The notes: generated by a model not told the origin, from the sequence alone. A stretch of 64,000 nt of DNA from Escherichia coli (GCF_003334305.1 NZ_QOWS01000005.1); one strand, 5' to 3'. Counted from the stretch's first letter, positions 5,486-11,757 are shown. Translations and numbers: made by a program.

Positions 5486-5527
5486 CGCACAGAATGTGAT
5501 GTCAGCACTCTGTGCGTCTGCTTTTAT
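5486..5527 (+). terminator. Bidirectional intrinsic terminator between eamA and the GntR gene
   Basis: 8-bp stem cgcacaga / tctgtgcg (5486-5516) followed by tctgctttta. Confidence 0.55.
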
Positions 5528-6222
5528 CGCGGGAAAAAGTACTTTACCTGGAACTCGAAAATATTGCTGTAAAGTAACGAATAATCCAGCGGAATAGAGT
5601 TACTGTCCACAGCCTGGGTCTGAATTTTAAGTATGGGATCCCGTGGGCTGATCCGTAAAATACTGGCGATTTCTGGGGTAGGAAAAGTAGGGGAGAAAGT
5701 TTCAAAGGTGCCAATGATTTTGATCCCGCATTCATTCTCAATATATGAAAATTTGGATTTTTGCATATGTGACACGGTTAAATCAGGAAAACGTGCTACT
5801 GACATCCACCTTTCTTCTAATTGTGCTGCATTATCCTCAATGAATCGCAGTCTCTTTATGTAATAAACCTGCTCACCAGTCACTAAATTCAGCTCAGTCG
5901 CAATAGTGGGTGAAGCATCCTGCACTTCAAATTTCATAATCTGACTCCCTGCCTCTTTGCCGCTTTAATGCGCAATTTCACTGAAACTGTTCATGTGATC
6001 AATGTGTGCAACAAAATTCTTTTTTTGAATGTATGTTCCTGAACCATGCTTTCTGTGAATAATTCCTTCGCCTTCCAGCAAGGATAATGCCTTACGCAGG
6101 GTATTACGCGAAACATTATAACGAACAGCGAGTTCCGCTTCTGACGGCAACAAATCACCAACATGCCATGAATTGCCATTGATTTCGGATTTAAGTAAGC
6201 GGGCAATCTTTTGAAAAATCAC
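5524..6222 (-). pseudogene. GntR/HutC-family regulator (HTH + UTRA domain) interrupted by an in-frame TAA stop at codon 86
   Basis: ORFs 5965..6222 (GntR winged-HTH) and 5524..5937 (UTRA-like effector domain) are in the same frame, separated only by TAA (rc of tta at 5965-5967); combined length 232 codons fits a GntR/HutC regulator. Confidence 0.7.
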
Positions 6223-6420
6223 TTTTGCACCTTTTAAGAGCCATTGAAAACAAGGAGTTGAGTCCTGATTGGTTTATCGTATGGCCGAGTCGTTTAATAA
6301 TCACCCTGATGTTGAACAACTTTATCACTGTATTACTGTGATCAATGTACCAGGACGTATAGCTACTGCGGGATATGATATTTAAACAATGTAATCTGTT
6401 ATATACCAGTAAGGGAAAAT

Positions 6421-6732
6421 ATGAAAAAAATATTGTTAGTTTGCGCTGCGGGCATGTCAACCAGTATGCTGGTTAAACGTATGATTGATCATGCTAACGC
6501 TATTTCACTTGAAGTTAATATTTCCGCATTGGCGATTGCAGAGGCTAAAGGGAAAATTAAAAATAACGAAGTTGACGTTGTTTTACTTGGCCCGCAAGTT
6601 CGCTTTCAGAAACCAGAGATTGAAGCCGTTGCACAGGGGAAAATGCCTGTAGCCGTTATCGAGATGAAAGACTACGGCACCATGAACGGACAGGCAGTTC
6701 TTGAATTTGCGATGAAACTACTGCAAGAGTAA
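6421..6732 (+). CDS. PTS lactose/cellobiose-family EIIB component (103 aa)
   Basis: N-terminal catalytic cysteine motif LVCAAGMSTS typical of ChbB-type EIIB. Confidence 0.85.
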   Translation: MKKILLVCAAGMSTSMLVKRMIDHANAISLEVNISALAIAEAKGKIKNNEVDVVLLGPQVRFQKPEIEAVAQGKMPVAVIEMKDYGTMNGQAVLEFAMKLLQE

Positions 6733-6846
6733 GAATCTAATATTATTAAACTATTACCTGAACTAACTTTTCACACATCATAAAATGGATATGGCATACA
6801 TGCTTTATTGGGATGTATAAATATCCAAAACAACAGGTATAAAAAA

Positions 6847-8169
6847 ATGGGATTAATGGCCTCATTCGAACGTGGAATGGAACGTTTTCTTGTTCCAGTT
6901 GCTATCAAGTTAAACTCACAAAAACATGTTGCAGCGGTGAGAGATGGATTCGTTTTTACGTTTCCAATTATCATGGCAAGTTCATTAATTATATTAATTA
7001 ACTTTGCCATATTATCGCCAGACGGTTTTATTGCCGGATTACTGCATCTGAATAGCATTTTCCCCAACCTTGAAAAAGCACAAGCTATTTTTACTCCGGT
7101 AATGAATGGTTCTGTAAATATCATGTCAATTATGATTGCTTTCCTGGTCGCCAGGAATATGGCGATTAGCTATGAGCAAGATGATCTTTTATGCGGATTA
7201 ACGGCAATAGGAGCATTTTTTATTGTTTATACGCCATATCAGATGATAGATGGGCAAGCATTCCTGACGACCAAATATCTCGGCGCGCAGGGGTTGTTTG
7301 TTGCTGTTATCGTTGCATTGATCACCAGTGAAATATTTTGTCGCTTAGCTCGAAACCCAAAAATCACCATAACGATGCCGGCAGCTGTACCGCCTGCGGT
7401 AGCGCGTTCATTTAAAGTTTTATTGCCAATATTTTTTGTCATGGTGTTCTTTTCCGCACTTAATTATTGCCTGACACTGATATCCCCGGCAGGACTAAAC
7501 GATCTTATTTACACATTAATCCAGACGCCGCTCAAACATATGGGAACGAATATCTTTGCGGTAATTATCCTGGGGGCTGTGGGTAATTTCCTGTGGGTGC
7601 TGGGGATCCACGGACCTAATACCACATCGGCAATTCGAGAAACCGTTTTTTCTGAGGCTAATCTGGAGAATCTCTCCTGGGCCGCTCAACATGGCACTAC
7701 CTGGGGCGCGCCATATCCGATTACCTGGACTTCTATTAATGATGCATTCGCCAACTGCGGCGGTTCAGGTATGACGTTGGGGTTATTGTTGGCTATTTTT
7801 ATCGCTTCTAAGCGTGCGGAATACCGTGATCTGGCAAAAATGTCATTTATCCCCGGTATTTTCAATATCAATGAACCGATAATGTTTGGCCTTCCTATTG
7901 TACTTAACCCCATCATGATGGTGCCGTTTATTATGGTTCCCATTGTTAACTGTGCCATTGGTTACTTCTTTGTTTCGATGGAAATTATTCCACCGGTTGC
8001 TTATGCCGTGCCCTGGACTACGCCCGGACCTTTAATTGCTTTCCTCGGAACCGGGGGGAACTGGCTGGCTTTACTGGTTGGTTTTTTATGTTTAGGTGTG
8101 GCGACAATGATCTATTTACCTTTTGTTATTGCCGCCAACAAAGTCAATAACATGACAACTAACGGATAA
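6847..8169 (+). CDS. PTS lactose/cellobiose-family EIIC permease
   Basis: Polytopic membrane protein with EIIC (ChbC/CelB-like) architecture; start chosen at the internal ATG (MGLMASFERG...), start uncertain by a few codons. Confidence 0.8.
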   Translation: MGLMASFERGMERFLVPVAIKLNSQKHVAAVRDGFVFTFPIIMASSLIILINFAILSPDGFIAGLLHLNSIFPNLEKAQAIFTPVMNGSVNIMSIMIAFLVARNMAISYEQDDLLCGLTAIGAFFIVYTPYQMIDGQAFLTTKYLGAQGLFVAVIVALITSEIFCRLARNPKITITMPAAVPPAVARSFKVLLPIFFVMVFFSALNYCLTLISPAGLNDLIYTLIQTPLKHMGTNIFAVIILGAVGNFLWVLGIHGPNTTSAIRETVFSEANLENLSWAAQHGTTWGAPYPITWTSINDAFANCGGSGMTLGLLLAIFIASKRAEYRDLAKMSFIPGIFNINEPIMFGLPIVLNPIMMVPFIMVPIVNCAIGYFFVSMEIIPPVAYAVPWTTPGPLIAFLGTGGNWLALLVGFLCLGVATMIYLPFVIAANKVNNMTTNG

Positions 8170-10237: not shown

Positions 10238-10261
10238 TCTATTTTAGTTAAGGAGTTGTGT

Positions 10262-11701
10262 ATGTCAGGATTTAAAAAAGGTTTTTTATGGGGCGGTGCG
10301 GTAGCCGCGCATCAGTTGGAAGGTGGCTGGAATGAAGGAGGAAAAGGCATCAGCATCGCTGATGTGATGACTGCTGGCGCTCACGGGGTGCCGCGTGAAG
10401 TGACAGAAGGCGTTATCGACGGGCTTAATTATCCCAATCATGAAGCAATTGATTTTTATCATCGCTATAAAACAGATATTCAGTTATTTGCCGAGATGGG
10501 ATTCAAATGCTTTCGAACTTCCATTGCCTGGACACGAATCTTTCCGCAAGGTGACGAACAGGAGCCGAATGAAGAGGGTTTACAATTTTATGATGATCTG
10601 TTCGATGAATGCCTTAAGCAGGGAATGGAACCTGTGGTGACGCTTTCACATTTTGAGATGCCTTATCATCTGGTGACAAAATATGGTGGCTGGCGAAACC
10701 GTAAACTGATCGACTTTTTTATCCGCTTCGCATCAACGGTCTTCACGCGCTATAAAGAAAAAGTAAAGTACTGGATGACGTTTAACGAAATCAATAATCA
10801 GGTGAATTTCAGCGAAAGCCTGTGTCCATTTACTAATTCCGGTATCTTGTATTCGCCAGAGGAAGATATCAATGAGCGCGAACAAATAATGTACCAGGCG
10901 GTACATTACGAGTTAGTTGCCAGTGCCCTGGCGGTACAGACTGGAAAATCGATCAATCCTGAATTTAACATTGGCTGTATGATCGCCATGTGTCCCATCT
11001 ATCCTCTGACGTGTGCACCCAACGATATGATGATGGCCACGAAAGCAATGCATCGTCGTTACTGGTTTACTGATGTTCATGCTCGTGGATATTATCCGCA
11101 ACATATGCTGAATTACTTTGCCAGTAAAGGATTCAACCTCGATATCACACCAGAAGATAACGCGATTCTTGCCAGTGGTTGTGTCGACTTTATCGGCTTT
11201 AGCTACTACATGTCTTTTACGACACAATTTTCGCCCGATAACCCGCAACTGGATTATGTTGAACCACGAGATTTGGTCAGCAACCCTTATATCGATACAT
11301 CCGAATGGGGATGGCAAATTGATCCGGCAGGGCTACGTTATTCACTCAACTGGTTCTGGGATCATTTCCAGTTGCCGCTGTTTATTGTCGAAAATGGATT
11401 TGGTGCGGTTGACCAGAGACAAGCTGACGGCACGGTGAACGATCACTATCGCATTGATTACTTTGCTTCCCATATTCGGGAAATGAAAAAAGCCGTAGTT
11501 GAAGATGGTGTTGACTTAATTGGCTACACCCCGTGGGGCTGCATTGACCTGGTTTCTGCCGGAACAGGGGAAATGAAAAAGCGCTACGGAATGATTTATG
11601 TCGATAAAGACAACGAAGGGAAGGGAACGCTGGAACGGATACGTAAAGCGTCGTTTTACTGGTATCGGGATCTCATCGCCAACAATGGCGAAAATATTTG
11701 A
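10262..11701 (+). CDS. GH1-family 6-phospho-beta-glucosidase (479 aa)
   Basis: AGGAG RBS 6 nt upstream of ATG; GH1 N-terminal motif [15 protein letters not shown] and catalytic-Glu motifs (TFNEIN, IVENGFG). Confidence 0.9.
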
Positions 11702-11725
11702 GACTTGAGGAAGATATTACGGAGA

Positions 11726-11753
11726 TGTCAGGCTCTGTGATCAGAGCCTGACA
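11726..11753. terminator. Perfect 12-bp-stem hairpin (tgtcaggctctg-tgat-cagagcctgaca) between the glucosidase gene and marB
   Basis: Perfect inverted repeat read directly from the sequence; no strong T-run on either side. Confidence 0.5.
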
Positions 11754-11757
11754 ATAA

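Follow-up and report, generated by a model that had tools for sequence, protein, structure and literature searches.

A nonsense mutation in bgcR, the regulator gene of the bgc beta-glucoside locus between eamA and marB, and the probable silence of the operon in an Escherichia coli clone

This analysis concerns a block of six genes between eamA and marB in a stretch of 64,000 nucleotides (nt) of Escherichia coli DNA (NZ_QOWS01000005.1), hereafter called the window, to which all coordinates refer. The block belongs to the bgc locus, which consists of bgcR and the divergent genes bgcE-F-I-H-A, and in this strain bgcR is a pseudogene, interrupted by a stop at codon 86 (K86*). It is highly probable that the block is the E. 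coli bgc locus already described, with an operon that is most likely silent in this clone. All six genes had been annotated in RefSeq before, and what is specific to the window is only the nonsense mutation of the activator gene, which is rare and confined to one clone; the rest was known.

The layout was taken from a listing of open reading frames (ORFs) and from the annotation that RefSeq gives for strain H15 (100 % identical). The block (5480-11757, 6.3 kb) sits between eamA on the plus strand and marB on the minus strand, and marB is followed by marA, marR and marC on the right side of the block. A sequence-only reading of the window had placed six genes here, for a GntR/HutC regulator, three components of a phosphotransferase system (PTS), a porin and a glycoside hydrolase of family 1 (GH1). 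The ORF listing and the H15 annotation agree with these positions, and the NCBIfam, Pfam and PDB sequence searches and a fold search agree with the families. The components of the locus are as follows.

5524-6222, minus strand: bgcR (pseudogene), GntR/HutC-type regulator (ORFs, NCBIfam, Pfam, PGAP annotation)
6223-6420, no strand assigned: divergent bgcR/bgcE promoter region (sequence comparison with relatives)
6421-6732, plus strand: bgcE, PTS EIIB (TIGR00853, PDB alignments)
6847-8169, plus strand: bgcF, PTS EIIC permease (TIGR00410, PDB 3QNQ)
8197-8508, plus strand: bgcI, PTS EIIA (NF007768, TIGR00823, PDB 1WCR)
8564-10237, plus strand: bgcH, sugar-specific outer-membrane porin (Pfam, ScrY profile match, model, Foldseek)
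10262-11701, plus strand: bgcA, GH1 6-phospho-beta-glucosidase (NF007154, PDB 3PN8/4F66)

BgcR has been described as a positive regulator of GntR type that controls five genes in one operon, among them those for IIB, IIC, IIA and the phospho-beta-glucosidase BgcA, and the operon serves the use of cellobiose, arbutin and salicin when temperatures are low (PMC3585215). Together with chb, asc and bgl, bgc is one of the cryptic beta-glucoside operons of E. coli (PMC4488073). In strain CFT073, a six-gene set, c1955-c1960, is designated 'PTS system, cellobiose specific'; K-12, O157:H7 and Shigella lack it, and several other strains have it (PMC2831201). The window has the gene set and order of bgc, with a divergent GntR-type gene and then the genes for IIB, IIC, IIA, the porin and the phospho-beta-glucosidase. 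To our knowledge, no other E. coli system has this gene set. Neelakanta, Sankar and Schnetz are said to have reported in 2009 that the fifth bgc gene codes for the porin BgcH, that bgc expression needs CRP in addition to BgcR, and that single-base promoter mutations (bgc*) give BgcR-independent expression. A literature search for publications that place bgc beside marB or eamA found none. The sequence-only reading considered the substrate unreadable, a view superseded by the match with the published bgc locus, for which cellobiose, arbutin and salicin have been reported (PMC3585215, PMC4488073).

In the window, bgcR is present as two ORFs, 5965-6222 and 5524-5937, and an in-frame TAA at 5965-5967 occupies codon 86. 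The gene carries the PGAP label 'internal stop' in H15, and codon 86 is AAA (Lys86) in strain SCU-176. The intact BgcR allele has a GntR helix-turn-helix domain at residues 4-65 and a UTRA domain at residues 87-218 (Pfam). Since the stop lies between the two, the truncated BgcR would keep the DNA-binding domain only; the layout of the HutC subfamily, with the GntR winged helix-turn-helix and UTRA in one polypeptide, is broken in the window, which thus lacks the intact BgcR activator of bgc. A second derived change in bgcR, T138R, is located at 5810. The earlier idea of a self-contained catabolic module is therefore borne out in gene content and in the beta-glucoside assignment, but the module is not intact, K86* having been missed.

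The distribution of the stop was followed with 81-nt probes. The stop-bearing haplotype was exact in 11 records, nine of them full-length (H15, A7, A28, TUM1887, DETEC-E601, 41, TUM12355, WL164, and FCI51), while its AAA version gave exact matches in 1544 records and the B2-type haplotype in 443. The bgcR nonsense allele is rare and restricted to one clone, with H15, A7, A28, TUM1887 and others as its named members. Strain A7 and its relatives match the rest of the window at 100 % identity, which places the window in the K86* clone. Inactivation of bgc has also occurred independently elsewhere in E. coli, as in M23917, where the porin gene is frameshifted (3364-5036 of the compared stretch L005). 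In NZ_OY754389.1, an insertion of about 770 bp near 2302103-2302872 splits the regulator gene, and the halves are annotated separately.

BgcR being the reported activator (PMC3585215), K86* suggests that the operon is probably not inducible in this strain. The promoter region 6223-6420 is identical to that of the nearest relatives with intact bgcR, and a comparison of the K86* strain with these relatives revealed no compensating promoter mutation. The truncation of bgcR together with the unchanged promoter indicates that the operon is most likely silent. Within the bgcR-bgcE spacer, conservation across Escherichia, Citrobacter, and Salmonella is highest in the block TGTGA(T/C)CAATGTA(C/A)CA at 6337-6352, and in most genera examined a TGTGA-containing CRP-like site (TGTGA-N6-TACCA) precedes the IIB start by 74-79 bp. 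This putative CRP site would agree with the CRP dependence that bgc is said to have.

The substitutions of the clone point in the same direction. Against the nearest relatives with intact regulators (47-1826, O104:H4), the window differs at five sites in 6.4 kb, all of which are derived and protein-changing: K86* and T138R in BgcR, S103F and A104T in BgcH, and R288S in BgcA. Within the clone, the bgc genes have three more single-nucleotide polymorphisms, each of them non-synonymous. The ratio of non-synonymous to synonymous change (pN/pS) between the window and two diverged haplotypes is 0.015-0.19 per gene, apart from one gene without any non-synonymous change. Eight of eight non-synonymous changes would at most fit relaxed constraint, not purifying selection, and the fact that all eight bgc substitutions of the clone alter proteins suggests that the operon is probably silent and decaying. 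From the sequence comparison, neutral drift of the operon is most likely in this clone. In the model that we propose, transcription of bgcEFIHA would need the divergent activator BgcR and, as reported, also cAMP-CRP, so that the cut at codon 86 would leave the operon silent and drifting neutrally.

Expression, and usefulness, might have survived the bgcR stop through CRP alone, another regulator or a BgcR-independent promoter. In that case the truncation would be of no consequence, or would even derepress the operon, as many GntR/HutC proteins are repressors, and the related BguR of Streptococcus pneumoniae is called a repressor in the title of PMC3585215. The five structural genes are all open, and the nonsense allele persists in at least nine genomes from different hosts and continents. 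However, BgcR itself is described as a positive regulator (PMC3585215), the promoter is the same as in strains with an intact regulator, and the entirely non-synonymous set of lineage-specific substitutions is unlike the species-wide pattern. Continued expression is therefore quite improbable in our estimation. Several points nevertheless weigh against the reading as a silent bgc operon. The identification with bgc is based on gene content and secondary descriptions, not on an alignment to strain i484. The promoter may already carry a bgc* change that confers independence from BgcR. In addition, we infer silence in this strain from its sequence, and eight out of eight is not significantly different from what neutrality would give (about 0.1 when roughly estimated as 0.75^8).

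The proteins coded by the five structural genes were assigned by family models and structural alignments. BgcE matches the Lac/cellobiose model TIGR00853 (E 1e-24), a family-level call because its NCBIfam scores are below the curated cut-offs. Its phosphorylatable cysteine, Cys8, lies in the conserved CxxGxSTS loop (local sequence MKKILLVCAAGMSTS) in the alignment to the cellobiose/chitobiose IIB structures (PDB 2L2Q, 1IIB, and 1E2B). BgcF is of the lactose/cellobiose EIIC type, scoring 335 bits on TIGR00410 (cut-off 236), and aligns with ChbC (PDB 3QNQ) at E 4e-57. BgcI matches NF007768 and TIGR00823 at the family level, and its His76, within LILIHAQDHLM, aligns with the conserved EIIA histidine of ChbA (PDB 1WCR), which we take to be the phosphorylation site, His89 of full-length ChbA. 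By these matches, the PTS is assigned to the Lac/cellobiose family (TC 4.A.3). BgcA scores 1034 bits on the curated phospho-glucosidase model NF007154 (cut-off 624) and has a near full-length alignment with the 6-phospho-beta-glucosidase of Streptococcus mutans (PDB 3PN8/4F66, E 7e-241). The acid/base Glu176 in the NEI motif (TFNEINN) and the nucleophile Glu377 in the ENG motif (IVENGFG) are both kept in the 3PN8 alignment. The segment SAGTGEM(K/R)KRYG at residue 432, with the C-terminal S..K.Y pattern typical of phospho-GH1 enzymes, is conserved with the S. mutans enzyme and presumably has a role in phosphate binding. Within the bgcA gene, 10282-10809 is similar to a plasmid of Enterococcus faecalis (LR961926.1), with 72.6 % nt identity. 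The closeness of BgcA to this plasmid and to the S. mutans enzyme would fit an old transfer between Firmicutes and Enterobacterales.

BgcH begins with a signal peptide and a predicted helical N-terminal extension, about 120 residues long, after which residues 147-557 make up a LamB-type barrel. Pfam places LamB (PF02264, E 2e-81) at 147-557 and Sugarporin_N (PF11471, E 4e-7) at 30-56. A single-sequence search of the PDB with BgcH gave no match at E <= 1e-3, and a profile of 25 BgcH sequences reached ScrY (1A0S). In the AlphaFold model, a helix at 31-71 precedes the barrel. The mean predicted local distance difference test (pLDDT) score is 67, with values of 75-92 for most of the barrel (10-residue blocks) and below 55 for the helix 31-71. 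The porin extension noticed in the sequence-only reading is thus a predicted helix with the Sugarporin_N motif, which may form a coiled coil as in ScrY. The best Foldseek matches of the model were LamB and ScrY (1MPR, 1MAL, and 1A0T), with target template modelling (TM) scores of 0.74-0.77, and from its domain and predicted barrel fold BgcH is placed in the LamB/sugar-specific porin family. The porin and the GH1 enzyme, although unrelated, share one cluster of a 90 %-identity protein database, for which fused or mis-called ORFs are suspected, and a look-up of the protein clusters for 'Bgc' names returned generic PGAP names only.

In its intact form, the pathway would take up beta-glucosides through the outer membrane via the BgcH sugar porin, and the Lac/cellobiose-family PTS would import and phosphorylate them. 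The phosphate would pass from phosphoenolpyruvate through EI and HPr to His76 of BgcI (EIIA), to Cys8 of BgcE (EIIB) and on to the sugar in BgcF (EIIC). BgcA would then cleave the 6-phospho-beta-glucoside into glucose-6-phosphate and glucose or an aglycone.

The locus is polymorphic within the species. When 5400-11800 was compared by megablast with 5426 complete E. coli genomes and carriage was defined as at least 80 % of the block, 2494 genomes (46 %) from many hosts carried it. About equally many matched the flanks only, with eamA and marB within a 153-bp span. In K-12 MG1655, marB (1619989-1620207) and eamA (1620238-1621137) are separated by a 30-bp spacer and there is no island, in keeping with the statement in the sequence-only reading that K-12 has eamA next to marB and that the block is strain-variable. 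Identity with the empty site stops at 5469 and resumes near 11755; the differing stretch begins at 5470 and ends just left of, or runs through, the marB-proximal hairpin (about 11725-11755). The presence/absence polymorphism that the sequence-only reading had proposed is thereby confirmed. EamA ends in ..KVRG* in the island-bearing alleles and in ..KVGS* in the empty-site alleles, indicating that the polymorphism extends into the core gene. One hairpin is found at the empty site and two at the filled site (5482-5520 and 11726-11753). Plasmid carriage was considered and rejected, as the PLSDB matches, though filed as plasmids, are whole chromosomes or what look like pieces of chromosomes (NZ_OL790696.1 and NZ_CP134663.1, of 4.8-4.9 Mb; NZ_CP141085.1 and NZ_CP141086.1).

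The block could also be a recently acquired mobile genomic island in an ancestral eamA/marB junction, as the word 'inserted' in the sequence-only reading implied. Its GC content of 42.5 % is below that of the flanks (46-49 %), all empty sites among those listed share one junction type, and BgcA and its gene have the Gram-positive relatives mentioned above. In a scan of one genome per species, the porin gene and partner genes were found in many Enterobacterales. The same six-gene order is located away from mar in Citrobacter sp., Salmonella enterica subsp. diarizonae, and Erwinia psidii; the cluster is rearranged in Klebsiella, Enterobacter, Cedecea, Buttiauxella, and Ewingella, where the GH1 gene lies beyond the regulator, and no linked GH1 gene was detected at the Kluyvera and Raoultella loci. 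However, no integrase or transposase gene, insertion sequence, tRNA or att site, or flanking direct repeat was found among the ORFs, repeats and annotation of the block, and reduced GC is the sole sign of foreign origin. In E. albertii, bgcR-EFIHA adjoins marB-marA-marR, and 7.4 kb align colinearly with the window, at 82.8 % nt identity. Synonymous divergence between the window and B2-type E. coli is 0.06-0.14 for the island genes, matching the pooled value of 0.089 for eamA, marB, marA, and marR. Together, the E. albertii synteny, the flank-like divergence and the absence of mobility features argue for an old resident of Escherichia, and a recent insertion is unlikely. An origin from a mobile element was rejected for want of an integrase, insertion sequences and direct repeats. 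A horizontal origin at or before the base of Escherichia is plausible. The substrate is another matter for doubt. The natural one may be a different beta-linked sugar (gentiobiose, cellodextrins or mannobiose-type glucomannan fragments), with the use of cellobiose, arbutin, and salicin as a side activity. The published phenotype is cryptic and seen at low temperature only (PMC3585215, PMC4488073), the dedicated ScrY-like porin suggests a bulkier substrate, and related GntR-regulated operons of Gram-positive bacteria handle glucomannan products (PMC3585215). Nevertheless, sequence cannot assign specificity within Lac-family EIIC proteins or GH1 phospho-glucosidases, and we regard this alternative as possible but doubtful. 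For the resident bgc locus with a disrupted bgcR, we tentatively propose, at somewhat less than even confidence, that the K86* clone represents a regulator-first loss that freed the five genes from selection, as the eight of eight non-synonymous substitutions would show, and that, separately, the filled and empty alleles are an old polymorphism dating from the ancestor of E. coli and E. albertii, with the block retained in roughly half of the species.

The flanking genes and the regulatory and boundary features of the locus are given below.

3198-4385, minus strand: ydeE (ORF listing, H15 annotation)
ends at 5479, plus strand: eamA, left flank (annotation)
5470-5479, plus strand: last four eamA codons, left edge of the polymorphic stretch (filled/empty alignment)
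5482-5520, no strand assigned: left boundary hairpin, inverted repeat I4, between convergent eamA and bgcR (folding)
6337-6352, no strand assigned: CRP-like site TGTGATCAATGTACCA, 8/10 consensus positions, centre 76 bp upstream of the bgcE ATG
8512-8539, plus strand: strong hairpin in the bgcI-bgcH gap with a U-rich stretch after it (terminator scan, folding)
11726-11753, no strand assigned: right boundary hairpin, inverted repeat I14, between convergent bgcA and marB (perfect 12-bp arms)
11758-11976, minus strand: marB, right core flank outside the operon (ORFs and annotation)

Pattern scans for sigma-70 promoters and terminators were overall no better than on shuffled sequence, and individual hairpins were kept only after folding controls. 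The left boundary hairpin, at -17.4 kcal/mol on the plus strand (z -3.8) and -23.3 kcal/mol on the minus strand (z -5.7), is a probable bidirectional terminator. The right boundary hairpin folds at about -22 kcal/mol on both strands and has weak similarity to the hairpin of the empty site. The hairpin between bgcI and bgcH (-20.4 kcal/mol, z -4.2) is a candidate for an internal attenuator or RNA-stability element. The B2-type allele has a 1-nt deletion in the stem of this hairpin. An Rfam scan of 5300-12000 identified no RNA family.

Elsewhere, the window is 99.98 % identical to H15 up to 41702, just past hipA. From 41703 onward, H15 has two integrase genes and hypothetical genes (1-8268 of the compared stretch L041), while the window is K-12-like (ydeP, a fimbrial usher gene, yddA, yddB, and pqqL) and 100 % identical to strain A7. 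The H15-based annotation puts the autoinducer-2 operon lsr at about 25174-33846 and hipBA at about 40005-41593. For the stretch at about 34377-39796, the near-identical H15 has the annotation of a frameshifted pseudogene of the ECSE_1600 autotransporter family.

The locus is best labeled bgcR(pseudo)-bgcEFIHA and not as a new island, and metabolic reconstructions should not count bgc of the K86* clone as a working beta-glucoside pathway. The presence/absence polymorphism beside mar is frequent, and existing annotation covers it well. Apart from correct annotation, the finding is of little consequence. The clone-specific decay may be a small example of the erosion of a cryptic catabolic operon after loss of its activator.

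Among known systems, the chb operon (chbBCARFG) is similar in having a Lac/cellobiose PTS with separate IIB, IIC, and IIA, is likewise a cryptic cellobiose system, and supplies with ChbA, ChbB, and ChbC some of the closest solved homologs. In K-12, chb is controlled by the AraC-type ChbR and contains genes for a deacetylase and for ChbF, a phospho-glucosidase of GH4, but none for a porin; the window locus instead combines a regulator of GntR/HutC type with a GH1 enzyme and a porin of LamB type. The bgl operon (bglGFBH) is a cryptic aryl-beta-glucoside system whose products likewise include BglH, a porin of the LamB family, and a phospho-beta-glucosidase of GH1. It relies on a glucose-family EIIBCA (BglF) and the BglG antiterminator and occupies a different chromosomal site, in contrast to the three-protein Lac-family PTS and the GntR regulator in the window. 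Erosion of bgl in some E. coli lineages has been reported as well (PMC2646131). The predicted barrel of BgcH superposes on both ScrY (1A0S/1A0T) and LamB (1MAL, 1MPR), within the TM range given above, and the Sugarporin_N motif lies at the start of its long helix. However, the identity is only 18-24 % in the structural alignment, and the N-terminal extension of BgcH is longer than that of ScrY, which comprises roughly 70 residues. BgcA shares with the S. mutans glucosidase (3PN8, 4F66, 4F79, and 4GPN) near full-length alignment, the NEI and ENG motifs and SAGTGEM(K/R)KRYG, and differs in host phylum and in Ser288, which is Arg in S. mutans and in the common E. coli allele. The closest counterpart is the bgc operon itself, with a divergent GntR-type regulator, five co-directional genes, absence from K-12 and variability among E. 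coli; it also occurs in E. albertii and in genera of the Klebsiella, Enterobacter, and Citrobacter type, and its proteins are Gram-positive-like. The carriage of 46 % in many hosts looks broader than the title of Neelakanta et al. 2009 (Appl Environ Microbiol 75:2284) suggests. The window differs from the described operon in K86* of bgcR, to which the clone adds amino-acid changes in BgcH and BgcA and, in one member, BgcF.

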